Shown here in pieces: positions 12,893-54,142 of a DNA stretch of 64,000 nt. Position numbers and translations under genes: made by a program. The stretch covers positions 1 to 64,000 of the forward strand of contig NW_026935468.1 in NCBI RefSeq assembly GCF_032062105.1, written 5' to 3'. Numbering within the stretch: the stretch's first letter is position 1; each line of letters starts with the position of its first letter. The notes beneath the pieces were generated by a model that saw nothing but the letters and a program-made list of their open reading frames with translations, made no database searches and was not told the DNA's origin. The stretch comes from Saccostrea cucullata (taxonomy: Eukaryota).

Positions 12893-14892
12893 AGGAGATA
12901 GGGACTGATTAAATATGAGCACAAATGATAAGAAACAGTTGAAGAAAAAAATTGCAAAACATTGTCGAATTTGTTTTGTTTTATTGGCATATATCCTTTC
13001 AGTGTTATAGAGGTTAATCAGAACATTGCAGATTGAAAATGCAACTTTTTAAAGCAATTAAGGAATCAAAGTGTACTGAGGTTATGCAATTGATAGGTAT
13101 GTTCATTGCTGCTGCGTGGTTGCGAAATAAGGATTTTGCAAGTCTGCAGACAGAAAGAAATCTTTCTGCTTACGTATTAGTAAAGAAAACTTTCTTGTTG
13201 GATGTTAAAATTCTAAAGCGTAAGTTAATATACAAAATTAATTTATAACGAAAGTATACAGTCAAATTTTAATAAAAAAGGTTTTATATTTTAAAAAATA
13301 GATCTTCTTTAAGTTTAGAATTTTATTTCATTAACAAAATGAAATGAATTGCAAATTAAATTTTCATAAAAAAGGAAATAAAAAGAAAGAAATATAATTG
13401 CAAATGAAATTAACTTCATGAAAATGTCAAATACTAGTATCCCCTAGTATTAGATTGTATGGAACATTCAATATTCACCGAAACTTTCACAATATAACTT
13501 TTATCCTGTATTAGAAATTATGAGGCGCTAAATTCCTTGAAAGGGATTCTGATCATCGACCTTCGCAATGATGAATTTATTTTAGCATAAAAATATTCAA
13601 AAGAAGCATGAAAATCCAATTTCACAAAATTGAAATAGCTGTCAATTTCTCTATATTTAACATTAAATCTATTTTATTTTTTCGATGATGATAATTATTT
13701 AAGTTACCAGATCCTAAAATGTTTACAGAATATTAAAGTTTAAAAGAATAAGGAATCGAACAAAATTTTGATTAGATATTTAAATATTGCAACGAGAAAA
13801 AGGTGAAAATTTAACTTGCAAATTATTTTGTGATATCTTGTTTCGATGGATATTTTTGTCTTTATTCGTGCTATTTTATTGCTATTGAATAATTTTGTCT
13901 TTGTTGTTATACTGCATGCAGTGATTCAATATCGTTGAGAAATTAAAACAAATACAAACATGTGTACAAGTTTCTCGAGGGAATTGAACGATGCAGGCAC
14001 ATATTTCTCGATCATTCTTTCAAGTTTATTTAATGATAAAATGAGTAATCATCTTTAAAAAACGATGAAACATAGCTCAATTGATAAAGGAGTTTGTTGA
14101 ACAGCAATTTTGCTTAAAAACAAGCTTAAAGAAGCCTATTTTCTCAGCCTAGATTGGAAAATGTCAAACGGGTCACCAAATAACATTGAATTCATCTACC
14201 GAAGGGTAATTAAGCACGCACCATGTTGTGATTGCACCTTGGCTGTTGCTGAGTAAATTCATACAGACTTTCAAATATTTTCGGAATCTTGAAGGAGCAA
14301 TGTTTTAAAAGTTTTCTCTTATACTTTAAAAAGATAAATGTATTGACAGTGATAAGAGTATCTCAAACGACAAACAAACAAACAAAAAATATGAATAGTA
14401 GTGATTTTTAAAATAAGATGTTTTTTCTTTGGTGCAATCTTTAAATACTCGTACAACTTTTTTCGCTTGAATTTTATTGGTTAATAAACACCAATCCTCA
14501 AATATTTACTTATTTTTCATACCTTGAATACTTCCTCAGAACATTTATTTAGTCTTTATATCAGTAATTAATTGTTATTCTAAAATAAATGTAAAAATTT
14601 ATAAATCTAACAAAATTTTACCGATTTGGTGAAACTTACTGGACAAACTCTGACCTCCCCATTCTTCCCTTCCAATGAAACTTTACACTGTAAAATTTAA
14701 ATACAGTAATTAAAATCATAATTGCTCTAAATAAAAAAAGAAAATCATTTATATATAAGTAATTTTCCGTAACCAAACTTAACACCATCGCTGAACATTT
14801 ATGTACAAGTAATTTTCCGTAACCAAAATTAACACCATCGCTGAACTTTTATGATAAAGTTGAGATGAACATTTTTTGTTCTATTTCAGAAA

Positions 14893-17800
14893 ATGCCTAC
14901 ATGTGTCATTTTTATGGTTGGCCTCTTCTTGGCAGACAGAGCATGCGCAATGACATTACATTATAGTGTCATGATCGATGCAGGGAGTTCAGCTAACGGG
15001 TCAGAGTGTATTCATGGCCTGATCGAAGATCAACTTTCTCAACATTTAGCATCACTGAAATATTTTCTAAAAATATAAAGCCACCATTGAGTTCATTTCA
15101 GAATAAATTAGATTCGATTCCGGAATATATTCGTAACTTGACCTCAATCGCCGAATCAAAAGTGCCGTATGATGTTCATAATAGAAGACATCTGTATTTA
15201 CTTGCAACTGCAGGTAATCAACATACTTAAGCAATTAGCCATCTCACACAAAATGGTCAATATGAACGTTTCTTTTTATCATTAAAACAAATACACTTCG
15301 AATTCTTTCCTAGGTCTTCGATTTCTAAAAGAGGAAGATGCTAGAAACTTGATGAATACAGTAAGACGTGTTTTATACGACAGAAGAATCAACAGATTCA
15401 ATTACAGCGAAAGGAGCGTCCGAATTCTCTCTGGCGAAGAAGAGGGCGTGTTCGCTTGGATAACTGCAAACTACCATAATGGATTCCTCTCCTCTAAAAA
15501 GTGAGAATCTTCTTTAATTCAAATAACAAATATAATCATAAAAAACGAAATTTAGTTCCTGTAATATAAGTTTTCATTATATTGCCGTGTTTTCTAGTTC
15601 CCTGTCCTATGGTGTTGGTGTGCTATAGGGCTGTGTATTGACCAAAAAAATTCGATACGATACGATACAATATTTTTTAAAGCGATATGCGATATATTGG
15701 ATTCTAAAACAAGTCCATCAAAAAAGGCTTTTAAATCATTAAATGCATCGATTTCATTAAAAAAAATTAGTGTTTTATTACCCGTTTCAAAGTTCTTATC
15801 CCATAGTCAGTAAATAAAACAATTACAATATAAACTTTTAATGACTGTAAAATCAAAATGTTAAAATAAAATTGTTATGTATCTTATGATAACTATAAAA
15901 ACTGTGTTATTTCTTTTATAAATCTATAATTATTGATCAGTTTTAATTTAAAAAAGTGAAATATAATCTTCGCTGATTAAAATTCCCTCTTTTTCTTAGA
16001 AGAAAAACTGCTTGTCCTACGTATTGGAAGTAACATGTTACGTACGATATATCGATATATTGATACAGCCCTAGTGTGCTAAAAATGGGGGGCGGATCCA
16101 CACAAATAACCTTTCTCCCAGACGGACCTCTCTTAGCTCACATGTTTACATTCCGAATAGCGGGACGAATCTACAATCTCTACTCACACAGTTATCTAAA
16201 TTTTGGAATGAATTATATGTACAGAAGAATCAACAAATATCTTATCCAACAAAATTCACATTACACAAGGATAAATAACCCGTGTGCACTGACAAGTAAG
16301 GATGTAGAAAATAATATTCTGGCTTCTGAATTAAAAAATTATAAGCATATTCATATATTTCTTCTTCAAATGTACTTTTGATGTATACATTATGTTCGAC
16401 ATCTTTTACCAAGCTACATGTACGTATATAGTAAGAATTTGTCATTCACCAACCCGCACGTCTGTTACAATGTTGTTTTTCTAATTTTAACTCAAAGTAA
16501 TTGCAATTAAACTTGATATACAAACAGACAAAGATCTTGCACGAATTTGTAATTATTTTTAAATATATTTAAATTCCTTTAAAACGTTAGCTTTTCTTCC
16601 TGGTCTGTTTGCAATTATACTTACATGAAACACTTGATACACATGAGGATAACACCACAATTAACTCTGGTAAGTGTTACAATGTCATATAGTTCCAAAA
16701 AAAGTCAAGAAGCATAATTTTATGAATGTTCGACTGAATAAAAAATAGTAAAAGTCTCGGTGCAATTTTTGGACAATCATTCACACCAGCAAATACATTG
16801 CCTAGTTGGAAACATATTAATTTGTATGTTTCAGATGACAACTACGCATACGATACTGGCAACAAAACAATAACATTCCGGGGATCTGGTTCTCCTTCGG
16901 AATGTTTCAGGATTTTATCAAAGTTTCTTAAGGAGGCTCACGACACTTGTTACCCAAAGCCCTGTGCAATTGGTTCTGTCTATCAACCCTCAGTAGGTAC
17001 CGACAAATTCTACGCCATTGGAGCCTATGCTTATATTACAGCCACACTAAACGCTACAGACTCTTCTGGGAGACTGGATATCGAAAAACTTAACAAAACG
17101 GAGCATTTGTATTGTACTAAGGTAGGTCAAGTCGGGTGCTGTAAGTCAGTTATTATGTTTAGATCTTATGTTTTTCATTCGCACTGAAGAGATAGAAACA
17201 ACAAGCTAATGTACATCGATAAGAGATTTTGAGTTGATTAGAATTAATTGGGCTAAACAGTTATTGTCAACATATGTTTGGAGATATTGTAGAGGAATAT
17301 ATCCCGTGATGGATTTCATCAGTGCAACATATTAAATTGCAACAAAGCACAATGATCTAACTAAAGATTAGGACTATTTTAAAACTCAAAAACTGCTCTT
17401 TTTTCACTTTTGAATTCACTTTTTTTGGTTTATGTTTTTCAGACTTTTAGACTATGTGGTGTCTGCATACAAAGTAACATCGGAGTTTGTTTCAGTCACG
17501 TGTATGACGGGGCTCTACATGGTCGAGTTATTCACCTTCTCCTATGTGTTTCCGATGAACACAGAAAGGATCTATTCTGTTTTAAAAATCAATGGAAACC
17601 CACTCGGTGAGGCTTTGACATCTGGCATTGAAATCCGTTCTACAATTCAAAAATAAATAAATAAATAAATGAACAACTTTTTTAACGATAAAAAATGAAA
17701 AAAAATTATAATTTAAAAGAAAGCCAAAACACCTGCATTCAAACAAAATTTGGTATTATTTGTTGTTCTGAGTGCGAAAGCATTCGAAATGAATATTGAA

Positions 17801-17985
17801 TTCTTCATATTTTTGTATTTTCAGTTTGGACATTTGGCGCGGTGCTGTTCGAAAATGAACTGATGGCCAAGGTCTACCCCTGTGCCTCAATACCCTTCCC
17901 GTCCAGTGCAGGGGTATCAAAACAAATCCTCAAACTGAAGTGGCTTTTCATCCTTTCTGTGTTCTCATTTTATATTTTTATTTGA
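14893..17985 (+). pseudogene. NTPDase (GDA1/CD39 family) copy 1, pseudogene
   Basis: Same 6-exon layout as copy 2. 1-nt deletion near 14995 in ACR1 (exon 1 is 321 nt vs 322 nt; DAGSSGTR becomes DAGSSANG followed by a stop). 448-bp hAT insertion in exon 3. ACR4 Glu changed to Lys (KMGGGSTQ). Confidence 0.9.
15626..16073. mobile_element. Non-autonomous hAT-type DNA transposon inserted in an NTPDase exon
   Basis: TIRs TAGGGCTGT...ACAGCCCTA; perfect 8-bp TSD GTGTGCTA (15618-15625, 16074-16081); CGATA subterminal repeats; empty site in copies 2 and 3. Confidence 0.92.
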
Positions 17986-20900: not shown

Positions 20901-22204
20901 TTGTTGGACAATACCTTAAATCTGGGGAATAAAAATTATTTTTGCGAATTAGCATTCAAAATACTATGTATTAGTTTTCATGAACTGTTCACAAACATTT
21001 CCTATTGAATGTTCATTGCAAGGAGCACACGGCTGGTGTAGCTGGTTGACAGGGAACGTTTTCTCCTCAATGGCACTTTAACCCACCTCTGTTTTTCGTG
21101 GTTCTATTTGCTCTGCTTCAAATTGCGAGCTTGATAATTGTTTGTTATATCCATGTTTAAATTAAGCAATTCTCAAAATTGGTTTATACTTAAAGTTTGT
21201 TGATACTCAGAATTCCTGACACTAATTACAATTCCTGACACCCAGAAATCCTAACAATATAAATCCTGACAAGTGAATTACTGACAATCTCTTATAATGT
21301 AAATCATTGATAATCTTCACATATTTACTGCTGATAAAGCAGTCTTTGTTATAAGAGTTATCTCCCCTTTTAATCCCATTTTGGTTATAGATGTATACCT
21401 AGAACTTTATGCTAAGTTAGACTCATGAAACCCTAACAAAATGGCGTGTGTTGGTAAGGGGACTAACACAGTTTTGAGCATCAACTTTTGACTTGTTTAT
21501 AAGTTTGTGATAAGATTTAATAAACAGTTATAAAGAACACATGGAGTTTCTGTGTAAAAGTTAATATCTACGGTGGAAATAAAGATTAAGGCCAGCCGCC
21601 TGTTACAATACTGGGATTATGAAATTGATAGGTATAATCATTGCTGCTGCGTGGTTGCAAAATTCTGCAGACAGAAAAAAATCTTTCTGCTTACGTATTG
21701 GTAAAGAAATTTTCTTGCTGGATTTTAAAATTCTAAAGCGTAAGTTAATATACAAAATTAATGTATAACGAAAGTATAGTATACAGTCAAATTGTAAAAA
21801 AAAGACTTTCATACTTTAAAAATAAATCTTTAAATTTTATTTCATTAATAACAAGACAGGAATTACGAATTAAATTTTCATAAAAAAAATAGAAAAAAAA
21901 TAAAGGAAAAAAAATTACGCCCCATTTTGCAATTAAAAGTGATTTCATCAAAATGTCAAATACTAGTATTCTATAGTGTTAGATTTCTTGTGAATTTCAG
22001 TCTTCATTGAAACTTTCACAATAAAACTTTGCTGCTGTTTTAGAAATTATGGGGCGCTAAAATCATTTTTAAAGGGATTTTGATCATCGACCTATACGCA
22101 GTGATGAAAAGACCGCATTGATTTTAACATTAAAAAATATTTTAAAGTAAATTTCACCAATTGGGTCACTTAGTTCTTTCTGGATAAAAGAATATGAATA
22201 TATT

Positions 22205-23290
22205 GTGACCAGTCGACAGGGGATGCTCACTCCTCCATGGCACCTGATCCCACTACTTATGTTTTGGAGGTCCCTGTTTGCTCTGCTCCTGTACTGTATT
22301 GTTTTATGGACTTTTGATCTCGAATACTGTTTGTTATCTGCGTGTGTCATTGTAAATATTTCAGAACATGACACATATATAAAAATATTTACATTTCCAA
22401 TGTCTTTGTCTGAGATATAATTACAAATAGTATTTATTTCTTCATCAGTGTACTGGTTCATCGATAGGCGTGGTTTTAAAAAATCAGGGCGGGACAAATA
22501 GAGACAAGAAGCAGGGCTTCTAGCACGTGGATTGGCGGAATCAAGGACATGTAAATATAAGGAATAACTGTCAGATTTTTCAATTTCATGACAATGATCA
22601 ACCGATTGGCTTGCATGAAAATTTTATACATAAACACCTTTGGCGGCTGATATTCTTATTTCATCAACTTGCTTGTCAATAATTCACCTCGTTTTAGAAA
22701 TTGTACATAGGTAGAGCATGCTCTTGCGTATCGAACTAACTGAGATATATACACTCCGTATGTAGGTGATGAAGGTATATTGCTGCATGAGTAAGGGAAG
22801 TTGATGATTGATGTTTATCATAAAGCTTGGTTGTTAGATTACCATTAACGTCTTTTTCAAGTAAAATTTTCATATATGAAACATATGTGTCAGACTCTGT
22901 GGTATCTTTTATCTCAAGTTCATCGGAATATATCGTATTGACATAAGAATGGAGATAACCATTATAAATTGACAATACGTCATTGATATACATGTATCAC
23001 AATGTCGAGTTGAAGGTCACAGCAAGTGTTTTCTTCTTTTCACGTACATGTATTTATAAGATTTTGGACAAATTCTGCTTCATATGAACACATATTAATA
23101 ACAAGACCAATTGGTACACATGGGAATTCCAATAGATTGTTGGAAGGACTGGTCAACTAAAACCACATACATTGTAGATAAAAATTGTGATTCAGAAACT
23201 CAAGCATCTTTTTTTTACCAACTTCAGAGTAATTGTGTGTACTATTAAATGATTTTTAACAAAATAATTTTGCAAATGATCAATGACAAG
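22205..23290. mobile_element. Penelope-like element remnant: + strand 3' tail (22205-22350) and inverted, decayed RT fragment on the minus strand (~22640-23290)
   Basis: Minus strand gives GIPMCTN (cf. GIPMGTN), YINDVLSI (cf. YIDD) and LTTKLYDK. Absent from the paralogous unit-1 region. Confidence 0.72.
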
Positions 23291-23537
23291 GTGTCAGAAA
23301 TGAAGATACTTAAATCATACTGTCTGATTTTATTGGAAAAGTCGTTGATAATTTTGCCTTTATCGTGATGATACATGCAGTGATTCAATCTGTTTGAAAA
23401 ATTAAAACAAATTTATACACTTTTCTCGAGAAAAGTCTGGAATGCGATGCATACACATATTTCTGGATCATTCTTTGCAAGTTCATTCCATAATAAAATG
23501 ATAAATCATCTTTAAAAAACGATTAAACATAGCGCAA

Positions 23538-24230
23538 TACGCGGGTTTCGAGATTGTAACTCTCCTACGACAGAGGCGCAAAACGTATCCATTTCAGCAT
23601 GGAGGTGGGACAAGTTGTTTCTGTACACAAAAATGCATATATAAATGAACGATGTTTATGGCTTTTAAAAATTATTTTAAGTTATAGAAAGATAATAATG
23701 TTAGGAGTGATGCATTTTATGATTTTATCAAGCTCAACTGTGTATATTTACAAATCTACTTTCATTTATAGGGTACTTGAAAACGAAATAAACGTCGTGG
23801 TCTTTATAAAAAGTAAAAGATTTTCTTGATTGTACAAACATTTTCTAAAAAGTAAGTGGGTTCTTTGAAGTTATAAGGAAAATAATCAATGTGTCATTTA
23901 AATTGCCGACGTGCAATGTTCAGATGCATGTGTACTGTATTTATTAGAGGTCCTTATCTCTCTTCCCTCGTCTGAAAAGTCTCACATCCACTGATATTTT
24001 CTTTTTTGTTCCGATTTTTTAGCTTAAAAAAAGACGCTTTTACATTAATTCGGTTACTCTTGAGTTGAAAAGTGCATCTTTACAATTATATAGTTATGAA
24101 AATTCAGTATATTGATAATGCGATATATCCAATATATAAATAACTGTCCCACTTGTTTGTTTACGCGGCAACGAAACCCCCCTCCTCAACGAAAGAGCGC
24201 ACCAAGGGAGAAAATCTCGAAACTTGCGTA
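23538..24230. mobile_element. MITE with 18-bp TIRs, specific to duplication unit 2
   Basis: TACGCGGGTTTCGAGATT ... AATCTCGAAACTTGCGTA; the empty site in unit 1 reads CAATTG (~14078-14083). Confidence 0.85.
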
Positions 24231-24729
24231 TTGATAATGGAGTTTGTTAAACAGCAATCATGCTCAAAACAAGTTTTTTTAAAAAATATAATATGTATTA
24301 AATAACGATGGTAAGAATATCGCAAATGACAAAACAAAATAAAAGATCTGAAGAGTAGTGATTGTTTAATAAAAATGAATTCTGAAAATATCAGTTATTT
24401 TCTTTGGTGTCATCTTTAAATACATTTTTTATACCTTGAATTATTCCTCAGAACATTTAGTCTTAATATCAACAATTAATTGTTATTAAGTGTCAAAATT
24501 TATATCTAGCAAAACTTTTACCGCATTGGTGAAACTTACTAGACAAACTCCCTTTCCTCCCTTCAAATGCAATTTTAAAATTTAAATCAAGTATTTTCAA
24601 AATCATCATTGCTTTAAAAAAAAAAAGAAAACCATCCATGTACAGGTAATTTTCCCTAATCTAAATGAACATGATTTCTGAACTTGTATGATAAAGTTGA
24701 GATGAACATTTTTTGTTCTATTTCAGAAA

Positions 24730-27700
24730 ATGCCCACATGTGTCATTTTCATGGTTGGCCTCTTCTTGGCAGACAGAGCATGCGCAATGACATTACATTA
24801 TAGTGTCATGATTGATGCAGGGAGTTCCGGTACACGAGTCAGAGTGTATTCATGGCCTGATAGAAGATCAACTTTCTCAACATTTAACATCACTGAAATA
24901 TTTTCTAAAAATATAAAGCCACCGTTGAGTTCATTTCAGAATAAATTAGATTCGGTTCCGGAATATATTAGTAACTTGACCTCAATCGCCGAGCCAGAAG
25001 TACCATATCATGTTCATAATAAAAGTCACCTGTATTTATTTGCAACTGCAGGTAATCAACATACATAAGCAATTAGCCATCTTATGCAAAAAAAGTCAAT
25101 TTGAGCATTTCTTTTTATCATTAAAAACAAATCCAGTTCGAACTCTTTCCTAGGTCTTCGATTTCTAAAAGAGGGAGAAGCTAGGAACTTGATGAATACA
25201 GTGAGACGTATTTTGTCCGACAGAAGAATCAACAAATTCATTTACAGCGAAAGGAGCGTCCGAATTCTCTCTGGCGAAGAGGAGGGCGTGTTCGCTTGGA
25301 TTACTGCAAACTACCATAATGGATTCCTCTCCTCTAATAAGTGATAATCTTATTTATATAATTCAAACCACAAATATAATCATCAAAAATCAAATTTAGT
25401 TCCTGTGATATTAAGTTTGCAATATATTTCTGTATTTTCTAGGTCCCTGTCCCATGGTGTTGGTGTGCTAGAAATGGGGGGCGGATCCACACAAATCACC
25501 TTTCTACCAGATGGACCTCTCTTAGCTCACATGTTTACAATCCGAATAGCGGGACGAATTTACAATCTCTACTCACACAGTTATCTAAATTTTGGAATGG
25601 ATTATATGTATAGAAGAATCAACAAATATCTTATCCAACAAAATCCACATTACACAAGGATCACAAACCCGTGTGCACTGACAAGTAAGGATGAAGAAAA
25701 TTAATATTCGGGCATCTGAATTTAAAAATGATAAGCATTTTCATATTATTATTTTTTTTTAGAAATGTACGTTGGATGTACATAACTTTTTCGACTTTTA
25801 ACCATGCCATATATTTAAGAGTCTGTTATTCATCAACCCGTACATCTGTTACGCTGTTGGTGTTTAAATCTTAATTCAGACAGGTTCGATTCGAACAACA
25901 AGTAACAAAGACACATTATTTTGTATATGTGTTTTAATCTCATAAACGATCTCCAAAAACTCCCCCTGCCACACTGATTGCAATAAAACTTGGTATACAA
26001 ACAGATAATGAAAAGATTTACACAAAACAATACATTTTAATTCCATTCTTCAAGGTCTGATTCCAGTTGTACATACATGAAACACTGGATACACAAGTAG
26101 ACAATACCATAAGTAAGTCTGGAAACTGTATACATCTAGTTCCAGAAAATGTCAAGATGCATAATTCTATGAATGTTAGAACTGAATAAAAAATAGTAAA
26201 AGTCTCAAACTATCATTCACACCAGCAAAATTTATACTTTGTTTCATTGGAAATTTGTATGTTTCAGATGACAACTACGCATACGACACTGGAAACAAAA
26301 CAGTAACATTCCAGGGATCTGGGTCTCCTTCGGAATGTTTCAGGATTTTATCAATGTTTCTTAGGGAGGCTCAAGACACTTGTTATCCAAAGCCGTGTGC
26401 GATAGGTTCTATCTATCAACCATCTGTGGGTTCCGACAAATTCTACGCCATTGGAGTTTATGCTTTAGTCGCAAACGATCTCAATGCTACAGACTCTTCA
26501 GGGAGAATTAATATCGATAAACTTAACAAAACAGCGCATGCGTATTGTACTAAGGTATGTCAAGTCGGGTGCTGTAAGTTAGTCATTTTGTTAGACCATA
26601 TGTTTCTTATATTCGCATGGAAGATACAGTCTGAACAAGCTAATGGATTAGATATTAATCATTACACTGCAACATTATACATTTATTGACTGAGTTTGAG
26701 GGCAACATGCGTTTTGTCGGACCCAAGAACCAAACTGTCTGACTGAGGTCGTTTGGTTCGAAGGCCGACAAAACGCATTTTGCCCGAGGACATAGTCAAT
26801 AAATGTTTTGTTATACCTTTCATTTCATTATTTTTTACATATATGTATTTTGTACTGCCTTCCGTAATGTAACCTCCATCACTAGATTAAGCCCCGCCCA
26901 TTCTGTGACGTAATCGGTCCAACGTCTCACTTAGCGGTCCAACATCGATTTTTTTATGCCTGCTCAGCAAAACATTAGAAATGTTTGACTTTTTTCGTAG
27001 ATGTTTTTGAAGGTATAACAAAGAACAATGATCTTACTAAAGCTTTGCACTATTTGTTTTAAAATTTAAAAAAAATTGTAATTTTGTATGATTTATCAAT
27101 TGGTATGTTACATTTTCCTACTTATAATTAAAAAAAAAAAATTGTTATATCTTTCTTCAAGACTGCAAAACAAGGCTAGAATTGATAACTTCACATCCTT
27201 CTCTTAATAAGAAATATTTTTCAGACTTTAGACTATGTGGTATCTGCATACAAAGTAACATCGGAGTTTGCTTCAGTCACGTGTATGACGGGGCTCTACA
27301 TGGTCGAGTTATTCACATTCTCTTATGGGTTTCCTGTGAACACTGAAAGGATCTATTCTGTTTTAGAAATCAATGGAAACCCACTCGGTGAGGCTTTGAC
27401 ATACGGCATTGATTCCGTTCTACAATTCGAAAAATATAAATGAACAAAATTATTAACGATAAAAAATTTAAAAAATGTAATTTATAACAAAGCCAAAACA
27501 CCTGCATTTAACTAAACAAAATCTGGTATTATGTTGTTATGAGTTCAAGAGCAGTTTATATGAATATTGAATTCCTGTCGATACTGTTGTATTTTCAGAT
27601 TGGACATTTGGCGCGGTGTTGTACGAGAATGAACTGTTGGCCAAGGACTATCCCTGCGCCCCAATATCCTTCACTTCCAGTGCAGGGGTATCAGAACAAA

Positions 27701-27759
27701 TCCTCAAACTAAAATGGCTCTTAATCCTTTCTCTGTTGTCTTTTCATATTTTTATTTGA
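24730..27759 (+). CDS. Ectonucleoside triphosphate diphosphohydrolase (GDA1/CD39 family) copy 2, intact, ~453 aa
   Basis: Exons 24730-25051, 25154-25340, 25443-25684, 26268-26554, 27225-27387, 27599-27759 splice in frame. ACR1 DAGSSGTR, ACR2 ATAGLR, ACR3 SGEEEGVFAWITANY, ACR4 EMGGGSTQ, ACR5 DWTFG. N-terminal signal peptide and hydrophobic C-terminus. Confidence 0.93.
26676..27018. mobile_element. Intronic insertion with a long internal hairpin
   Basis: Arms ACATTTATTGACT..GGGCAACATGCGTTTTGTCGG..GAACCAAAC / GTTTGGTTC..CCGACAAAACGCATTTTGCCC..AGTCAATAAATGT; second inverted pair TGTTATACCTT / AAGGTATAACA; absent from copy-1 intron 4. Confidence 0.7.
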
Positions 27760-27773
27760 CAGATTCGAACATA

Positions 27774-28832
27774 CAGTGTGTTTCAGAAAACATGCACCCA
27801 TTTTCATTGAATTATATTTTACTGATGTTTTAACCAATACAATGAACCATCATATTAAATCAAAAGTCACCATTTCAAGATTTATTCTTATGAAAATATA
27901 ACAGAGTTAATATGGCAAATAGATAATGAATTAAAAATGAAAAAAAAGAAACTTGTAAGTTTTACTTATTAACAAAATATGTTCGAAATGGCATCATTTT
28001 TGCTGAATGATGCAAGAAAGTTCTCATTACTAGTGCAAAGTCTCTTGGTAATGAATGAGGTCTTATTTTTCGAATTATTTTGATTTCATTTGTTGTTTTG
28101 TCGTGTGTTTTATAAACTGTGACCTCTAAATATCCTCACAGATAAAAGTCAAGGAGATTTAGGTCAGGTGAGAGTGGAGGCCCAATTTAATGGACTTGAA
28201 TGAGTTGAACATTTGTTTTAACCAGCCCAAGGTTTTAAGATTCAAAACATATATCGGCATTCGATATACATTTGACTTGCTCAATTTTGAGTCACATTTG
28301 TTCACAGGCTCAGTTAGTTTGCTGAAGGATTTCATGTGAGTCTCTAGAACCATGCCTCTGTTGTAACATTCAAAATATGTTCGTCTTCTTATTGTCTTTT
28401 CATCCAATATTTCCTTTTCTTCGATCGTGCATTGACTCTTCTATGAGCTTCAAAATTTTACAGATTTATTGGCCTACAACTTTCACCTTATATTACTAAG
28501 TAAGTCTTTTGCATTCTGTAAACCTTATTTTCATTGTCCTAATTACATGAACCGGTGGCATGCTTTCTTAAAGCAGTTTCGGAGCTTGTGATGATTGCTT
28601 CTTATTAAATTTCATACATGTATCAAGAATGAAATTATATGGGTTTTTTTTCAGTGATGTCAAATATGACGTCATAATTAATTCAATTGATAATTATTTC
28701 CAAATTTTTGTTATCAGTAAAAAATTTAAAAGTCATTTTAGCATAATTCTAAATAACATTTTCATATGTTTCTGTTTGCATATCAATAGAGTGAGGAAAG
28801 TAAAAGGTTGCATGTTTTCTAAACACCCTTTG
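27774..28832 (-). mobile_element. Decayed Tc1/mariner transposon just downstream of the NTPDase copy 2 stop codon
   Basis: TA-flanked imperfect TIRs CAGTGTGTTTCAGAAAACATGCACC / GGTTGCATGTTTTCTAAACACCCTTTG; minus strand ~28185-28110 reads PPLSPDLNLLDFYL*GYLEVTVYK, matching the transposase WPPRSPDL..LDF.LWGYLK motif. Confidence 0.85.
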
Positions 28833-31165
28833 TACGTAAAACAACCACATGACTCCATGATTATGAACTGATATCTTATGATGTTTCCGATTCAATTCAA
28901 TAATCGATAGTGTTTTGTTTTCCGTTCGATTCTGAAACACTAATGTGAATTTATTTATATGCATATATTGTATAGTATACGAGTGTGTGTTTATTGTTAT
29001 GTTAAGAAAATAAACGAAATGCATTCACCCAAACTACGGTATTCACTTGTGTAATGTTAAAAGGTACATTTAAATTTAGTACTTTCTCAGCTTATTCCAT
29101 TTAAAACAGTTCTGAAAACTGCAGGAGATATATCATCTTAGGTAAATAATGTACCAAATAACAATATTTTGTATAGAAACGCCTGTAAAGTTCATCAAAA
29201 GGTATTTTCTTTAAAATGATTTTAAAAATTCTTACATTTGTACATTTGAAAATTTCCATCTTGAAAATAAGTACAAAACGTAACGTGTACTTTTGAATTA
29301 ACCCTCGTATAATTCTAATGCATTTACAGGGTACTTTTATTTTGCATAATATGCATGTAGTAAACATTGTCTCCGCTTGCAGTTCTCAAGATGGGAACTT
29401 TAATATTTCACAGCTCAAATGTATACATTTCAGATGTGTGCATATTACAAATGTACATAAACTTTGATCTCTGATCTTTTTTAAAGGTAAATAAAATTAT
29501 TTATTTTATTTATCTATTTATTTTTTGTTGCAAATTATATTGCATAAAAGATACATCATTTGTCAAGATAACCTATCACAAGAAGGTACTTATTATTTTG
29601 TAGATAATTTAAACATAAATTTTCAAAATTTTACATAAAAATGTGTAAACTTCTTACTTACCATGGATGTCAGTTATCTGTGTTCTCTTGCATTATAATA
29701 TTTGGAAATAAGATACGCAATTTTTTTCAAATTACAAATTTTACATTATTATAAAGGGAAATCAACACTAAATTTCTATACTTTAGCTATCGTAAGAAAT
29801 ATTATTTGTTCCCTGCATATACTCATTTTCAGAATGTCTGTACATCTTAACATATTCTCAGCGGCATCATTAATTTCATTAACATGCACATACTGAACAA
29901 ATGTTTTGCTGAGTCGTCTTTTCTGATTTTTTTCTATAGCATTTACCGCTCTTAAACTATACAAACATACGTTATCAATAATAAACTGAACTCATCTTGC
30001 TTGGCGCATAATTATTAAATGGTGGGAGCACTAAATATCAAAGAAGTGTTTACTACTTGTAAAGAGCATTAGGGATCATCCTGAGACACCATTGGACTTT
30101 TTGCAACAAAGGTATTGTTGAAGTTGTAAAGTATACCTTTAGGATATTTTGTTTTCTATTCAAACTCCTGAGACGTGCAATGTCCTAAGAGGTTACTGTT
30201 AGATGGACATTAATTCCCACTTTTTCTCGATCAGCTGTTCGGAGTGACCTCTTTCATTATTACCTTTAAATATATTCCCATGATTCACGAGAGAGAAAGT
30301 TTCATACAAAGGTAAGATAAAATATATATGCATGTTTATTGTGATATCGGTTTTTCCTTTCATCTCTTTAGCAAAAAATATCGTAAAACTATCGAATATT
30401 CTGAAATCTTGATTTATTTATCTCGAGCTCTATCATTGATTAGATTTGAAAATCATTTGCATTTTCATGTCATTTTGAAATGAAGGTGTCCAAGACTAAA
30501 GAGATTGCATACTAAATATCTTTATGAATATTTGAATGTACATGTATGACCCCTGGCAATATACTAGTACATTGTATGAAAAATTTGAATTGACACGGGC
30601 ACAGTTGTGCGAATTAAATAAACATTCGAGATTTTTGATTATTGTAATGCTGGAAAAAATGTAATATAGAATGTAAGCAATCTACAGACAAACATATTTA
30701 AGTAATGTTTGGATAAAACGGATGAAACAAATACGATAAATATTGCTTAAAAACATCTTACTAAACAACTTATCGACTGAAAAGTTCAAGTCATTTAGAT
30801 TCACAGTCTGTTGACCATATCACAACGATCAGACCAGTTAGAAGATTCGCATCATTTATCCTATATAAAGGTGCAGTCAGCTATATCGTGCAATTGAGGC
30901 TGTTCCCTGTTACGTATAAAAAGACCAACCGTACCCCCACTGTTTTCATCAATACTGTTATATGTACATGCTTAAAATTTTCTTTAAAAATTAACACTGT
31001 CAATTACAGATTTCTAAGTGCAATTTTAACAAATTAAATGAATGAAAAGAAAACATTTGAAAAATTAAGGTACTGCGCTACATTTCATCCAAAATTAAAA
31101 TTTACATGTAGTCTTGTTTGAATATTTTTATTCAAAAAGTTATGTAGGCGAAATACTAACGTGAA

Positions 31166-31267
31166 CACAGGGACAACTTATCCACTCTGTTCTCTACTTC
31201 ACATATAAAAATACACGTGTATTTTTTTATGTGAAGTATAGAACAGAGTGGATAAGATGCCCCTGTG
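31166..31267. repeat. ~100-bp near-perfect palindrome (collapsed MITE-like)
   Basis: CACAGGG..CTTATCCACTCTGTTCT.TACTTCACATA.AAAAATACAC|GTGTATTTTT.TATGTGAAGTA.AGAACAGAGTGGATAAG..CCCTGTG. Confidence 0.9.
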
Positions 31268-31570
31268 GTTGAACAGTCGAGACTTGTTCGACAACATTCG
31301 CTGCAGTTTTCAAGAGCTGTACATTGATTTAGAAAGAAATGACTATCTGCGAATTCCTTTAATTCCCTCCCCCCAAATCACAGGGCAACATTTGATGCAA
31401 AAGGAAGTTATTTCACAGCATTTCAATGCAAACGTATTTAATGCATTTTTATATACATAAATACTAGAAAATGGTAAAGGGTCATTTGAGTTTTCTGAAT
31501 AATTTTCCTGCAAACATATTCATTTAAATACTTCAAATTTATATCAGACTGACATTTCATTATACAGGAG

Positions 31571-34124
31571 ATGGTTATCCGTATTTATATCATCATTAGT
31601 ATGGCGATTCTCTTATGGACAGACAGGACATGCGCTAAGACGATTCAATATTGTGTAATGCTTGATGCTGGAAGTTCTGGTACAACAGTTATAGTGTATT
31701 CATGGCCCGAGCGCAGAACTACTTCATCAATATTCAACATTACTGAAGAATTCTCCCAAAAAATAAAACCAGCATTAAGTTCATTTGAGGATGACTTAAA
31801 TTCAGTTCCGCAATATATCCGAAATATAACCTCAATTGCGGAATCAAACATTCCTTTCTATGCTCAGAACAAGAGTCATATTTACCTCTTTGCAACTGCA
31901 GGTAGTCAAATTCTATCAAACACTGGCCATTTAAATAAAAATATTACTATAATCTTTCGAATAATTTTCACTACTTGTCTTTTGTGTACAGGTCTTCGAT
32001 TTTTAAAAGAAGAAAAAGCCAGGAATTTAATGAGCTCCGTGCGAAGTGTTTTGTCTGATAAAAGAAACCACAAATTCAAATACAGCGAAAGAAGCGTCCG
32101 AATTATCTCTGGCGAAGAGGAAGGTGTGTTCGCTTGGATTACTGCAAACTATCATAATGGATTTCTCGCCTCTAATCAGTAAGAAGCAAACAAATGATTT
32201 ACAACTGGTATTTAAAGAAGACATTCCTTCAATTCAATTTATCTAAGATATTCAGTTTGAGAAAGAATGAATAGCAAGAGTATATTTTTAGATCCCTGTC
32301 CAAAGGTGTTGGTGTGCTAGAAATGGGGGGCGGATCCACACAAATCACCTTTCTCCCAGACGGACCTCTCTTAGCTCACATGTTTACACTCCGAATAGCG
32401 GGACGAATCTACAATCTCTACTCACACAGTTATCTAAATTTTGGGATGAATTATATTCATCGAAGGATTGACGAGTATCTAATCGAACACAACCCGCGGG
32501 AGACGGATATTCATAATCCGTGTACATTGATAAGTAAGGAAGTCTAAAGATAATTAACATAATCAACTTCTGAAAATTATAGATAATTACAATCATAAAC
32601 TTATCAACACACACATAAACTGGATTTCCTTTTATAAAAATAATACACTAAATCTTGGTTATAATGATTGAATTTTCTGTGATTTTGAATTTACTTCCTT
32701 TTAAGGAGGCTGGGAGGTCAACAAATTAATTACAAATTAACCACCAGATTTAACTTATATTTTAAGATATGGTATCTTAAGCTGTCAACTATCATTTGGT
32801 AAAGAAAAAATCCATACATTTTAGTTTTAAAATTTGATCATTTTTGTATATCTTTATATGGAGCTCTTCTTTTAAAGGAGATCGAAATAGTCTGAAAATG
32901 GCTGCCACCCCCAGCCTCGTTAATCGAGATTTTCTATATCCATGCATGGACTGAAGGAACACAAAGAAAAGTTCTTTAAGGCATTCATTCAAAATCCTTA
33001 TATCCCAGATGAACTTATAACCGAGTTCTTTATAAACGAGTTTTACTGTATGATCGATTTTTTTCAGATGACAGTTACACATACGACGCCGGAGACAAAA
33101 CAGTAACATTCCGGGGATCTGGCTCTCCTACGGAATGTTTCAGTATTTTATCAAAGTTTCTTAAGGAGGCTCACGACACTTGTTACCCAAAGCCATGCGC
33201 AATAGGTTCTATCTATCAACCATCTGTGGGTTCCGACAAATTCTACGCCATCGCTGTTTATGCCTACGTCACTACTGATCTCAATGCTACAGACTCTTCT
33301 GGAAGACTTGATATCGATAAACTAAACAAAACTGCGCATATATATTGTACCAAGGTATAAAAGCTTAACCAAATGATACATGTGTATAGCATGTAAACTT
33401 TTATAAATTAATAATTTGACTGAAACATTGCTATTAATAATATAGATCTTGTTCACAATTTTATTGAATGAAAGATATTCCAAATTACATGATTGTGTAA
33501 GTATCCAGAGAGGAAATATCTTCAAGCGGGATCACTCAATTTAAAAAAAAGTTCTGATGTGTATACCACTTAATTTTTATGGGCGATAAAGCAGTTGGGT
33601 ATTTTTGGGGGGACATTATTTCAAAATACTGCAGTCGTTACAAACTGCATGTTCTAACTGTTTTTAAATTTTTCCAGACCATAGATTATGCAGTGTCCGT
33701 GTATAAGATACGTAGAGAGTTCGCCTCACGTCGGTGCATGATGGGGCTGTACATTACAGAGTTACTGACCTTTTCTTATGGATTTCCGGTCAACACCGAC
33801 AGAATTTACTCGACATTGAAGATCAAAGGGAAATCATTAGGTGAGACTTTAATACCTTTATTTTGACTCTTGAAAAGTCATTTGCTTATTATGAGTAAGT
33901 TTTGAGACTTGATGTAGCCGTTTTTACACAATTTTTAAGTGCCTTATTTTGTATTTGCAGACTGGACTTTTGGAGCAGCGCTGTATGAGAATGAACTAAT
34001 GGCAGAAAATTATCCTTGTCCTCCCATTTCATCCTCCATTAGTGCAGGTGTATCACAAGTCAACAAACTAGATCTACTAGAATGCCTCCTAATCCTTTTG
34101 TGTTTTCAATATTTTAATATCTAA
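31571..34124 (+). CDS. NTPDase (GDA1/CD39 family) copy 3, intact, ~457 aa
   Basis: Exons 31571-31901, 31992-32178, 32292-32533, 33068-33354, 33678-33840, 33961-34124 splice in frame. DAGSSGTT, ATAGLR, SGEEEGVFAWITANY, EMGGGSTQ, DWTFG present. Confidence 0.93.
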
Positions 34125-34731
34125 CAAAATATTGTCAATTTTATAAATATGGATTTTTTGTCATATCGTTCAGAAAATGAACGATGTATTCAGGATAATA
34201 GCATTTAATAAAATTTCTGAATATGCTTTTATTTTTATCTGCTGCCTTGATTTGTGCACTATACAAATGCAGTAAGGGTTATTTATATTAATCTTAAAAG
34301 AGAATGAGTTTTTATTGCGGGTAAAATCTTGCGTCACACCTACATAACCATATGAAATCTATGTGAGTGACATCTTGACATATTGTACAATGTTGATATA
34401 TATTTTACACTTTATTTTACACTATTTTGTTATGTACGAGTATGATCATTTAGAATCGCCAAATGTTTCATGCATAAATGAGAATTCTCTTAATTTGCAA
34501 AGCGTGTAAACGGTTGAAACACAGTAAAGAATTCTTTTAGCGAAGTGCCAAGGACGAACAATTTTGTTTCAATAAACGTAATTTTTTCACCACATGGAAT
34601 ATAAGCGTGAATGCGTTATTCGCGTGTTCGCTATAACCATGTTTTACTGTACATGTTTGATTATTCTTGATATCCGTGATTCCTCGTGAAAAAGTTAAGT
34701 TGAATTAAAAAAAAATTTAGGTGCCTATAAG

Positions 34732-35789
34732 TATGGCACGCCAAATTCACAAAAATGAGCTAAACCTAGTTTCACAATTGATAAACTAGGTTTATCGACT
34801 GTAAACTATAGTTTACAAACCGTAAACTATAATTAACGATTCGTTAAGTATAGTTTTCATCTGTAAAACTATATTTAACGGTTGTTAACTATAGTTTAAT
34901 CTAAGTTTATCTGTCTATAATAAAACGTTAACAATAGATTTTGTTGATAAACATAGATTCACGTCTGTAAACTATAATTTACGATGTTAACTATAGTTAA
35001 GAGTTGTAAACCATAGTTTACAAATCGTGAAACTGTATTTATCAGATAATCTATGTTTTGCGATCGCAATTGATTGTTTTTGGTGTTAAGTATAGTTTAC
35101 GGTTGTGAAACATAGATTATCGCGTTAACTATGGTTTACAGACGTAAAATATAGATTAACGTTGTTAACTATAGTTAAAAGTCCGTAAACTATAGTTTAC
35201 AACCGATAAACCTAGTTTATCGACTGTGAAACTATGATTAGCTCATTTTGTGAATTTGGCGTGCTAAACCTTGTTTCACAATTGATAAACTAGGTTTATC
35301 GACTGTAAACTATAGTTTACAAACCGTGAACTATAGTTTACAATTCGTTAATTACAGTTTTCATCTGTAAAACTATATGTAACGGTTGTTAACTATAGTT
35401 TACGAATGCTAATCTAAGTTTATCTGTCTGTAATAAAACGCTAACAATAGATTTTATTGATAAACATACTAATTAGATTCACGTCTGTAAACTATAATTT
35501 ACGATCGTTAACTATAATTAAGAGTTGTAAACCATAGTCTACAAATCGTGAAACTGTATTTATCAGATAATCTATGTTTTGCGATCGCAAGTGATTGTTT
35601 TTGGTGTTAAGTATAGTTTACGGTTGTGAAACATAGATTATCGCGTTAACTATGATTTACAGATGTAAAATATAGATTGACGTTGTTAACTATAGTTTAC
35701 AGTCAGTAAACTATAGTTTACAACCGATAAACCTAGTTTATCGACTGTGAAACTATGTTTTGCTCATTTTTGTGAATTTGGCGTGCCAT
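34732..35789. mobile_element. Foldback-like MITE with 29-bp TIRs, palindromic minisatellite interior and an internal ~520-bp tandem duplication
   Basis: TATGGCACGCCAAATTCACAAAAATGAGC ... GCTCATTTTTGTGAATTTGGCGTGCCATA; many GTAAACTATAGTTTAC-like units; 34759-35263 repeated at 35264-35785. Confidence 0.88.
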
Positions 35790-35850
35790 ATATATAAGTT
35801 CCTTCGGTGAAGTATTTTCATTAGATAACATCTTCTGAAAGCTACGATTA

Positions 35851-37767: not shown

Positions 37768-40286
37768 ACAATGTGGCTAGGAAAAAAGCAGAAATCAGTT
37801 TATTATTGAAAAGTTTAAACCCAATAGTGGTCCCAACCAATCCTTAAAAGGGAGAGGGTATGACCTGAACAAACTTGAATCTACACTAAGGATGCTTGCA
37901 TATTTCTTTGACTACCTGTGGCTTTATTGCCCTTTACATTTGAACTTACATTGTGGCCCCGCCCTACCCCCCAGGGGTCAGGACTTGAACAAAATTGAAT
38001 CTACACTACCTGAGAATGCCTCCATATAAATAGGACTAATCATGGCTTTGCTATTCTTGAAAAGAAGATTTTAAAAGATTTTTTCTACGTTTCTAATGTA
38101 AAACTTGGATTTGATTTTGTGGCCCGGCCCTACCCCAAGGGGTCATGATTTGAACAAAATTGAAAGTCTACTACCTGAGGATGCTTCCATAAATATATGA
38201 TCATTCATGTCTTTGCTATTCTTGAGAAGTAGATTTTTAAAGAATTTCCCTATATATTTCTATGTAAAACTTTGATCGGCCATTGAAGCCCCGCCCAACC
38301 CCCAGGGGCCATGGTTCGAACAAACTTGAATCTCCACTACCTGAGGATGCTTTCATAAAAATATGATCATTCATGCCTTTGCTATTCTCGAGAAGATTTT
38401 TAAAGAATTTCCCTAGTATATATTTCAATGGAAAACTTTGATCAACCATTGTGGCCCCACCCTACCCCCAGGGGTCATGATTTGAACAAACCTGAATCTA
38501 GACTACCTGAGGAAGCTTCCATATAAATATGATCATTCATGCCTTTGCTATATTCTTTAGAAGAAGATTTTTAAAGAATTTTCATATATATTTCATTGTA
38601 AAACTTTGGCCATTATGGCCCAGCCCTACCCCTGGGGGTCATGATTTGAGCAAACCTGAATCTACACGACCTGAGGATGCTTCCCTATAAGTTTCATCCT
38701 TCCTGGCACAGTGGTTCTTGAGAAGAAGATTTTTAAAGAATTTTCGTATATATTCCTATGTAAAACTTTGATCGGCCATTGTTTATATTCCTGGCACAGT
38801 GGTAAGAACATATAATTTTCACTGATTATCTCCCCATTGTGGAATCCCCCTTACCTAAGGATACCTTTGGCTCGAAAAGAAAAGTTGAGACAACTAGAAA
38901 AGCTTTGAGCCTTTGGCTCAGGTGAGCTAAAAAGCTTTGACCCCCCCCCCTTTCAAAAAAAGGAAAAACAATCTCCAAACTCGGAGATCCTGTTTCGGTT
39001 GAGGTCGGGTTGTAGGTTACAACTTTTTTTTAAACTTAATTTGTTACTATATTACCATAACACTACACTATAATACATGAATTCGATCATGCAAGCAAAA
39101 ATTGTTTTTAACCTTTGTCAATTGGCAGCTTTTAAAAATAAACTTTCTGCACATTCTATTTATTTAACTGAATAAGTATGAAGAACCTAGTTCATGTACT
39201 GAATTAACAATTCTTAAGTATTCTATCTTAAAATTAAATTGGTTGTCAGAAGCTCTGCCATTTCCAGAAGACTGTGTTAGTCATAATATCCTTTTTATAG
39301 ATCAAAACCTTTGTGTTTTGGGTTTTCTGAATTCTCCCAATCTTTAGCTAAACCTTTGTTCTGAGTCCTGGGAATGCATTGTAAATACAGTGAAACCCTG
39401 TTTTTTGGTTTTTTTTTTATTTATACAAAATTTTATTCACATATTAAGTGAATGGGATTGGGCAGCAGGCGAAGCCTATTTTAGCCCTCTCCCTGTTACC
39501 CTGTTATCTCATACATCAATATCTTTAAAACCCTGGATATGTTGAAGTAATTTGGAAGTCAGAATCAATTTTCCGTTAATACATGTACATATTTCAATAC
39601 AATCATCTCAAATCCTAATGCAACTTTTTTTCAGTCCCATCAAGTTTAAAATATCTAAGAATAACTGTAAATGTACAGTCAAACTTAATGATAATAAAAG
39701 AAAAAACATTTTAAAAAATCCCCCATTAGCTCTGAAATATATTCAAAAGATTACACATTATAAAACATGACTGAATTCTTCTACCAGGAAAGATCATATT
39801 AGGCATGAAATAACATCTCAGAGGAAAAAATGGCCAGAAAGATGGGGATATTTAGTGCAAGAATACAGAATTGTAAGTGTTTTTAAATCTATATATTCTA
39901 TCTGGTTGTACTGAAGTAAGAAGAATTATACAAAAACAAAATTCTTGATATCAATTTATAATATACAAATTCTTTATTTTGAATTATCAATTCACGAATT
40001 TCATTGACAATCATTACAGTTGAACAGACAGCTAATGGGTCAGGAAGTGAGACCCAAATCAAATAGAGGCAGTAGATCTTCAACACCAGGTCTAAAACTC
40101 CCTCCAATCTACCCCTCACTGCGCCCAAAGGGGTTCCCAGTCACCACTTCACAACAGATTGGCTGGAAGTCTGCCAGGAAAGAATGTCAGCTGGAAATCT
40201 ATGGGCGCTATGGCCCAGGGCCCAAGTCCAGGGGCCAGAATGGAATTCTGAAACTGTTGAAGTGGCCCCAGGAAGGCTCTCCTTAA
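35932..40286 (+). CDS. CIMIP1: C20orf85/CIMIP1-like ciliary microtubule inner protein, 3 exons, ~136 aa
   Basis: Exons 35932-35990, 39788-39872, 40020-40286 splice in frame to MANLQPLKNHINFVHNDQIWKDHIRHE..KWPERWGYL..PVTTSQQIGWKS..LKWPQEGSP. This matches the recalled C20orf85 motifs DEIWK, WPQNWGFL, PQTTQGFIGWRS and WPKQG. Confidence 0.78.
36168..36550 (+). mobile_element. Short Helentron-like (HINE/pearl-type) element
   Basis: AAACAAGATGTGTTTGTGAAACACTATGCGCCC start; CAAGGTCA core; (GACA/AACA)n microsatellite; GGGCGCATA end inverted relative to the start. Confidence 0.7.
36868..37030. repeat. ~87-bp direct repeat, 2 copies
   Basis: TTTCGGGCTA.GAATTTGG..AAAAATGTAAAGGTTTGTTT.CTAGAG.GAAAA..AACCTCA at ~36869 and ~36955. 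Confidence 0.8.
37733..38933 (+). mobile_element. Helentron-like element carrying ~5-6 copies of a ~167-bp satellite monomer (resembles the oyster Cg170/HindIII satellite)
   Basis: AAACAAGAGGCCCATGGGCCACATCGCTCACCTGA start; TGAGCCTTTGGCTCAGGTGAGCTAAAA end; CCCTACCCC..GGGGTCATGATTTGAACAAA..TGAATCTACACTACCTGAGGATGCTTCC units near 37960, 38128, 38295, 38460, 38625. Lies in CIMIP1 intron 1. Confidence 0.82.
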
Positions 40287-53440: not shown

Positions 53441-53711
53441 TTAATGTACGAACCTTTATAAAGACTTTTTTGTAAGTTGATATTTTAATAAAATATAGAC
53501 CTCTCGTGTTTTCTACTGAATGTTACAGTTTACTAATCAGATGTTTGTAAAAGCTTTTCAATATGCTCACATTCAAAATGGACAAAAATACACTAACAAT
53601 GATTAAAAAGCAACCCCTCCATCTCTTTTGAATGAATAAAACTTAGACTTGCAATTAAAGTGTGAGTGTGAGAAACAAGTGCAAGAACCTAAATTCCGAG
53701 AGAATGAATTC

Positions 53712-53814
53712 AGGGTTAGGGTTAAGGTTAGGGTTGGGTTAGGGTTTAGGTTAGGGTTAGATGTTGGGTTAGGGTTTAGGCTAAGGTTAGGGTTAAGCTT
53801 GGGGTTAGGGTTAG
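53712..53814 (+). repeat. Interstitial degenerate telomeric repeat (TTAGGG)n
   Basis: ~17 units including TTAGGG, TTAAGG, TTGGG and TTTAGG. Confidence 0.9.
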
Positions 53815-54142
53815 AATGCAAGAGCATGTTCTGATTACAGCTGTAGAAAATACTTGTACAGTAATCCAAATGTCTCAAATAGTTAAAGATCTATGAAATA
53901 AAATTTTGATGTGGCATTCCTCCTTCAATATCAATTATTCTCTGATATTAAAGTGAACATGGATCTCTTGTTTGTGACTTTCGCTTTAGAAGGATGGTTT
54001 CCTATACAAAATAAAAACAAAATACTAAGAACTAGTCCAGAAAACTTAAAATTAATTTCATTGATTATCTGTAGAATCCCCTTATTCTCTCTGTAAGACA
54101 ATTGACTATTCTGTTACACGTTGAATGTAAGCTAAGTGGCAC

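Follow-up and report, generated by a model that had tools for sequence, protein, structure and literature searches.

Copies 2 and 3 of a tandem NTPDase locus in the oyster Saccostrea cucullata encode candidate GPI-anchored apyrases

A 64,000-nucleotide (nt) stretch of the Saccostrea cucullata genome (positions 1 to 64,000 of contig NW_026935468.1; hereafter, the window) carries three GDA1/CD39 genes, which encode nucleoside triphosphate diphosphohydrolases (NTPDases), in tandem on the + strand with six coding exons each. Copies 2 and 3 are intact, and their sequences make it likely that the products are surface apyrases held by a glycosylphosphatidylinositol (GPI) anchor, the topology that a preliminary description of this DNA had suggested.

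Gene models and protein ends of copies 2 and 3

In the spliced models of copy 2 (453 aa, 24730-27759) and copy 3 (457 aa, 31571-34124), all 10 of 10 introns have GT..AG borders and the frames are open; the copy 2 protein is identical to RefSeq P0024. The last exon of copy 2 begins at position 27599, and the stop codon of copy 3 ends at 34124. The features of the two genes are as follows (ACR, apyrase conserved region; UTR, untranslated region):

22522-22550, + strand: 3′ end of an exon upstream of the copy 2 coding exons, supported by RNA contigs and read as 5′ UTR
24730-25051, + strand: copy 2 coding exon 1, with ACR1 and the start of ACR2; predicted signal peptide at 24730-24786 (residues 1-19)
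25154-25340, + strand: copy 2 exon 2, with ACR3 and, by alignment, catalytic Glu151
25443-25684, + strand: copy 2 exon 3, with ACR4 and Glu180; residues 193-202 lie at the predicted dimer axis
26268-26554, + strand: copy 2 exon 4, from the spliced model and RNA contigs
27225-27387, + strand: copy 2 exon 5, from the spliced model and RNA contigs
27599-27759, + strand: copy 2 last exon, with ACR5 and the stalk, including Cys420 at 27655-27657
27679-27681, in the same exon: predicted omega residue Ser428 (alternative, Ser427), followed by a polar spacer
27715-27756, in the same exon: hydrophobic end Trp440-Ile453, then the stop
31571-31901, + strand: copy 3 coding exon 1, with ACR1; predicted signal peptide at 31571-31636 (residues 1-22)
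31992-32178, 32292-32533, 33068-33354 and 33678-33840, + strand: copy 3 exons 2-5, from the spliced model
33961-34124, + strand: copy 3 last exon, with ACR5, stalk Cys423 (34017-34019) and predicted omega residue Ser431 (34041-34043)
34074-34121, + strand: hydrophobic end of copy 3, preceded by the spacer and followed by the stop

Membership in the family is plain from the Pfam match (GDA1_CD39, PF01150, E 1e-71), from the presence of five ACRs in copies 2 and 3 and from catalytic Glu151 in ACR3, which is invariant in 89/89 sequences. Foldseek gave a probability of 1.00 to NTPDase1, 2 and 4, with a query TM-score of 0.73-0.74 to rat NTPDase1/2, and a whole-protein Atlas search returned GDA1_CD39 clusters only.

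Signal-peptide and omega-site calls were made with scripted rules and controls, standing in for dedicated predictors. Signal-peptide cleavage follows the -3/-1 rule, and a GPI omega site is marked by three small residues in a row (omega to omega+2) with a polar spacer after them. The short, signal-peptide-like N-terminus reported in the preliminary description was borne out for copies 2 and 3, which have leaders of 19 and 22 residues, respectively. Each has a hydrophobic core of about 11-15 residues, then Asp-Arg and an A/T-C-A cleavage pattern, so that hydropathy and the -3/-1 rule both predict a cleavable signal peptide. Looking for an uncleaved anchor instead, we found the best 19-residue Kyte-Doolittle mean of the N-terminal stretch to be 1.84 and 1.48; in three control NTPDases, the anchor at this end reaches 2.8-3.25.

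The C-termini likewise read as first described, with small residues, a polar spacer, a hydrophobic end and no cytoplasmic tail. An S-A-G triplet lies 25 and 26 residues from the protein end in copies 2 and 3, and the omega triplet with its polar spacer, a pattern enriched over controls, is present in both. The segment score gives copy 2 a terminal hydrophobic stretch of 13 residues and copy 3 one of 11, the latter with an internal Glu; 0 and 5 residues follow the stretch, with no Lys or Arg among them. A search for a true C-terminal membrane helix again met weak hydropathy (best 19-residue values of 1.93 in copy 2 and 1.51 in copy 3 versus 2.85-3.29 for true helices), and the basic cytosolic tail of such proteins is absent. 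The same layout of Cys, small triplet, spacer and hydrophobic end occurs in two CD73-like last exons of this genome, and the Saccostrea echinata orthologue of copy 3 (P0001) keeps a similar hydrophobic tail.

The preliminary description had also leaned on an SAGVS motif kept in all three copies. The motif is indeed encoded at 17905, 27679 and 34041, but it is confined to recent duplicates, and as stated the argument is weak. SAGVS was rejected as a conserved family motif, since other oyster members read SAGNT, NAGTS, SAAIS or NAAAG; what their sequences conserve in the tail is the smallness of the residues and not SAGVS. The tail diverges faster than the domain while keeping its pattern: copy 2 and P0006 are 72% identical in the domain and 28% in the tail.

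Transcript evidence is fullest for copy 2. Its exons are joined in contigs of runs X1 and X2, which come from two studies and are RNA by the tool's guess, yet are spliced; among the joints is the one that leads from exon 5 into the tail exon, whereas exons 3 and 4 are seen joined in X2 only. The contigs extend to 27737 (X1) and 27744 (X2). The joint of the upstream exon (22545 to 24727, 5 letters between) is present in both, with a short side of 24-25 letters. When translated, the upstream exon, ending at 22550, contains no in-frame ATG after an in-frame stop, and because this RNA-seen exon adds no such start, the copy 2 leader is N-terminal. For copy 3, run X23 supplies four reads spliced from exon 5 into the last exon. 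Raw reads of runs X21 and X22 gave an exon depth of about 1x or less, and no start or end sites were obtained from them. Full-length relatives of 459 aa that carry the tail lie on Logan contigs of 2.2-2.4 kb, a size that suits spliced mRNA.

RefSeq also lists an isoform X2 of copy 2 (P0012) that skips exon 1 and ACR1 and whose start lies in sequence present twice, at 13074-13603 and again at 21609-22147. This model was left out, there being no joint from 21739 among the 15 joints listed (62 others exist).

The clade, its tails and alternatives to a GPI anchor

Copy 3 and 285 fetched proteins made up the initial set of 286 for the phylogenetic analysis, of which 242 entered the tree after removal of 34 redundant cluster members or isoforms, 3 fragments and 7 low-coverage NTPDase5/6-like sequences. 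The relatives were drawn from the best 120 of 606 and the best 150 of 8325 matches, a sampling that favours close relatives. FastTree placed the oyster genes in a clade of 122 of the 242 domains (support 0.999). An unrooted IQ-TREE analysis of a 50-sequence subset recovered the same split (98.2/99) and NTPDase1/2/3/8 as a separate supported clade (100/100) in which the genes do not nest, and a 30-row tree gave the clade an SH-aLRT of 100. A sister relationship to NTPDase1/2/3/8 was not rejected (approximately unbiased test, p 0.185). The NTPDase4/7 and NTPDase5/6 clades (100/100 each) formed without the window genes, NTPDase5/6 being represented in the trees by oyster sequences only (5/12 kept) and no vertebrate NTPDase2, 5, 6, 7 or 8 being named. 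The S. cucullata genome also encodes members of NTPDase1/2/3/8, 4/7 and 5/6.

Named members of the clade come from bivalves, gastropods, octopods, Lingula and the annelids Paralvinella, Owenia and Helobdella, while many are unnamed. The clade is further marked by Glu in ACR4 (119/122 members, as against 13/120 outside), where 22/22 NTPDase1/2/3/8 sequences have Asp. Copies 2 and 3 are, by tree and motif, GDA1/CD39 members of a distinct mollusc-annelid-brachiopod clade, and the separate subfamily suspected at the outset thus takes shape as a group much wider than the window. On the same phylogenetic grounds, pipeline labels such as ENTPD1-, 3-, 5- or 8-like misplace the clade proteins, as none of those groups fits.

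To survey the protein ends, we compared 72 clean hydrophobic clade tails with 27 two-helix controls from the NTPDase1/2/3/8 and 4/7 groups; given the relatedness of the sequences, the counts are not independent. The hydrophobic stretch is shorter in the clade (median 17 versus 23 residues) and is followed by a median of 4 residues, compared with 22 in controls; 60/72 clade tails and 0/27 controls end within 8 residues of it. Lys and Arg in the 8 residues past the stretch average 0.58 in the clade and 3.15 in controls. Gly, Ala and Ser peak at 0.40-0.54 at 5-11 residues before the stretch in clade tails, and an omega triplet 17-33 residues from the end was found by a loose rule in 64/72 clade tails versus 4/27 controls and by a strict rule in 49/72 versus 2/27. 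Both clade rates exceed those in random ectodomain windows of the same proteins (46% loose, 19% strict), and the triplet is thus commoner than chance would give. The difference held after thinning to <55% identity (short-ended, 28/35 versus 0/15; omega triplet, 30/35 versus 2/15). At the other end, the N-terminal hydrophobic core has a median of 14 residues in 95 clade members and 21 in 19 two-helix controls.

Across all 122 clade members the scripted rule called 63 GPI-like, 44 without a tail, 10 other and 5 helix-plus-tail; 8 of the 44 are truncated or misaligned at ACR5, which leaves 36 truly tail-less. Outside the clade, GPI-like tails were found in 11/120 sequences, among them Branchiostoma (P0127, P0176) and Physarum (P0228). 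By these calls, the tail trait is not oyster-specific, and secretion, given 36/122 tail-less members, is a normal predicted fate in the clade.

A number of observations tell against GPI anchoring. The omega and signal-peptide rules are general knowledge scripted by us; the portions of PMC9520029, PMC6742230 and bioRxiv 10.1101/2025.06.10.659000 available to us do not state the omega rule, which stands here as such knowledge. In the random windows the loose rule gives hits at its 46% rate, and the omega contrast narrows when a broader set of 70 non-clade helix-plus-tail sequences serves as control (29/70 loose, 19/70 strict). Within the clade, 12/72 tails extend >8 residues past the stretch, in addition to the 5/122 helix-plus-tail calls. 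In the AlphaFold model the tail forms a helix of 20 residues (433-452), from which a membrane helix and a pro-peptide cannot be told apart, and a feature search of the Atlas with the tail alone gave no usable match. As for RNA, no piece among those listed (X1, X2) reaches the copy 2 stop, and copy 3 coverage is thin, with a depth of about 0.6x beyond 34048.

Of the alternatives to a GPI anchor, the one that fares best, though still unlikely, is a short uncleaved C-terminal membrane helix; each product would then be of type I, with next to nothing on the cytosolic side. A signal peptide with a single C-terminal helix is common in unnamed non-clade NTPDases, and the continuous AlphaFold helix and the five helix-plus-tail members would fit it. 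The stretch, however, spans only 13 and 11 residues, with a Glu inside that of copy 3 and hydropathy (1.93/1.51) far from the 2.85-3.29 of true helices; it lacks a basic stop-transfer cluster, and the small-residue peak falls where an omega site is expected.

It is very unlikely that the main products are secreted because alternative splicing or poor GPI transfer removes the anchor. Such a fate would agree with the 36/122 tail-less clade members and with P0025, the RefSeq model of copy 3, which equals copy 3 up to residue 437 and then continues without a hydrophobic end. The only annotated alternative last exon is that of P0025:

40020-40286, + strand: LLC1-family coding piece (Pfam LLC1, E 2e-13), the last exon of P0025

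P0025 leaves the copy 3 exon at a non-consensus donor (CAA|GTCAAC), and the mini-exon in the middle of the join coincides with a repeated motif. S. echinata P0001 keeps the tail, and the copy 2 RNA contigs of two studies use the tail exon. We rejected the P0025 last exon as the true end of copy 3 on its LLC1 family, odd donor, repeat mini-exon and the tail of P0001; most likely, P0025 is a chimeric gene model and 40020-40286 is not part of the NTPDase.

The least likely alternative is an uncleaved leader, with both ends anchored (N-terminal helix plus GPI or helix) in mimicry of the two anchors that matter for CD39 function according to the accessible part of PMC7954995; the orthologue RefSeq isoforms P0026, P0048 and P0057 do have 15-22 additional N-terminal residues, but the short core (11-15 residues; clade median 14 versus 21), the Asp-Arg and A/T-C-A pattern and the RNA-seen 5′ exon of copy 2, without an in-frame upstream ATG, argue for cleavage.

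Two other traits were seen among the surveyed proteins. The tail-less clade members P0073, P0076, P0089, P0113, P0123, P0125 and P0163 (gastropod where named) end in Arg runs right after ACR5, which may bind membrane or matrix or may serve in processing. In the NTPDases P0059, P0157 and P0158 the catalytic domain is present two or four times in tandem, and P0059 has a GPI-like tail.

Proposed pathway, predicted pairing and related systems

In the pathway that we propose for a GPI-anchored product, the leader of 19-22 residues would lead the chain into the endoplasmic reticulum and be cut off after A-C-A or T-C-A. GPI transamidase would then cut after Ser428 (copy 2) or Ser431 (copy 3) and exchange the 25-26-residue pro-peptide for GPI. 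On the outer leaflet, the enzyme is predicted to hydrolyse extracellular NTP to NDP to NMP with Ca2+ or Mg2+, by means of Glu151 and, at the ACR4 position normally taken by Asp, a Glu; the chemistry is probably ordinary. The AMP produced would feed the oyster CD73-like enzymes that bear similar tails. Phospholipases could shed the enzyme, and the tail-less clade members would represent a secreted form. The chains would pair through the ectodomain and not through membrane helices, and an odd seventh Cys in the stalk may link them.

The AlphaFold model has a mean pLDDT of 85.3, with values <50 only in the stalk (423-434) and a loop (293-296). The ectodomain shares 6/10 Cys columns with NTPDase1/2/3/8, four being missing, and the ACR3-ACR4 loop has a median of 16 residues in the clade versus 25 in NTPDase1/2/3/8. 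The Cys count is odd in 56/66 sequences, and a stalk Cys is present in 62/72 clade tails, 10/36 tail-less members and 0/27 controls. Modelled as two copies, residues 20-428 gave an ipSAE of 0.66 (best control, 0.02), agreement between runs in at least 73% of contacts and a partner pLDDT of 86. In calibration, the dimer mark was reached by 21/30 solved pairs and 0/23 single chains from microbes, and by 17/29 pairs (animals, 7/16) and 0/30 single chains from eukaryotes. Interface conservation is slightly above average (0.54 versus 0.49). Residue 413 contacts the partner near the two-fold axis, and the stalks would therefore sit close together.

Other results speak against this pairing. Only 1/7 eukaryotic pairs without an older solved relative passed the mark, and the pass may reflect memory of solved NTPDase structures. 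The best contacts, between 195-200 of one chain and 145-150 and 216-218 of its partner, have the look of a loop exchange, and the interface residues named do not include Cys420. From the models, we give a homodimer about even odds and regard a stalk disulfide between chains as less probable than the dimer. Such an arrangement has counterparts: GPI-anchored acetylcholinesterase (H form) and membrane dipeptidase form dimers in which a Cys immediately ahead of the omega site links the chains. These enzymes are unrelated to NTPDases, however, and the stalk disulfide here is only predicted.

The closest relatives in design are the vertebrate NTPDase1/2/3/8 enzymes (PDB 3zx3, 3cj9), which have the fold, the five ACRs, the ACR3 Glu, six Cys and the presumed surface site in common with the clade proteins. 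The latter differ in having neither an N- nor a C-terminal membrane helix and no cytosolic tails, as well as in their ACR4 Glu, extra stalk Cys and shorter ACR3-ACR4 loop; the oyster's own NTPDase1/2/3/8 gene, by contrast, retains both helices and the basic tail. NTPDase5/6 and other secreted or type II apyrases (Leishmania NTPD2, legume apyrases, cnidarian tail-less NTPDases) share the N-terminal secretory signal, and the 36 tail-less clade members resemble secreted apyrases in overall topology. Oyster NTPDase5/6-like proteins differ, with an N-terminal anchor about 65 residues ahead of ACR1, an end right after ACR5 and a clade of their own. In anchoring, the nearest parallel is CD73 (ecto-5′-nucleotidase), since two oyster CD73-like last exons share the tail layout, whereas the CD73 fold and reaction (AMP to adenosine) are unrelated. 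CD73 is GPI-anchored, releasable with phosphatidylinositol-specific phospholipase C, and dimeric, according to the accessible part of PMC7954995.

In the parts available to us, PMC7954995 and PMC12586806 give surface NTPDases two helices and name a GPI anchor for CD73 only, and those of PMC9857879 and PMC4270689 do not mention GPI-anchored NTPDases. The literature searched contained no description of a GPI-anchored NTPDase or of this clade, though a GPI-proteome table, a supplement or a subscription journal could contain one. Within the same part of PMC7954995, the helices and oligomer formation of CD39 are said to shape its activity, full activity requiring oligomers. A natural surface NTPDase free of helices would directly test what the CD39 helices do, and could guide the making of a CD39-like enzyme that is fully active in soluble or lipid-anchored form. 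For bivalves, it suggests that extracellular ATP is cleared by a sheddable route.

A broader proposal can be put forward only tentatively: lophotrochozoans may possess a fourth animal NTPDase lineage in which a GPI anchor and a disulfide-locked ectodomain dimer replace the CD39 helices, the anchor having been dropped repeatedly to give secreted apyrases, with GPI-type tails recurring in amphioxus and slime-mould NTPDases. If this were true, lipid anchoring would count as a topology that recurs in the family and has been overlooked, and the whole ATP-to-adenosine chain would be sheddable.

Copy 1 and neighbouring sequence

The preliminary description had credited all three copies with both termini. 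The termini do occur in all three, but the copy 1 gene is broken, and its features are:

14893-17985, + strand: copy 1, a broken NTPDase gene with both termini present (signal-peptide and GPI-type tail sequences)
15626-16073, no strand assigned: 448-bp insertion in copy 1 exon 3, resembling a miniature inverted-repeat transposable element, with short terminal inverted repeats

A 1-nt shortening within ACR1, near 14995, shifts the frame. The 448-bp insertion is flanked by an 8-bp target-site duplication (15618-15625 and 16074-16081) and is presumably of hAT type, and at 16082-16084 Lys replaces the acidic Glu of ACR4. The frameshift, the insertion and the Lys rule out copy 1 as a third functional enzyme.

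A further clade paralogue is found on contigs C14663 (L008) and C2139 (L007), where the C2139 copy has a damaged exon 4; the two are probably haplotypes. The NTPDase cluster may hold four genes, with S. echinata orthologues of the fourth and of copies 2 and 3 perhaps on one contig.

Head-to-head with the cluster lies an SLC28/CNT sodium-nucleoside transporter gene (PF07662; 1176-6589, - strand). Its adjacency would suit nucleotide salvage, yet may be chance, because matches to the family occur on 8 contigs of this genome. Directly downstream of copy 3, a block of about 1 kb (34726-35796) in which direct and inverted repeats are nested is likely a transposon-derived satellite. The piece of LLC1, a ciliary protein, at 40020-40286 covers profile positions 52-118 only and may be a partial duplicate; a fuller copy is on contig C17217. 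Many von Willebrand factor A (vWA)-domain exons occupy 46583-64000 (+ strand) in a duplicated block (46.6-52.8 kb versus 57.7-64 kb, 72-83% identity), and Pfam VWA was confirmed in the 1 exon tested. Elsewhere in the genome, the intron after the ACR3 exon of the two-helix NTPDase gene (L009:2235-3600, contig C9382) contains a tandem array of short repeats of that exon's 3′ end.

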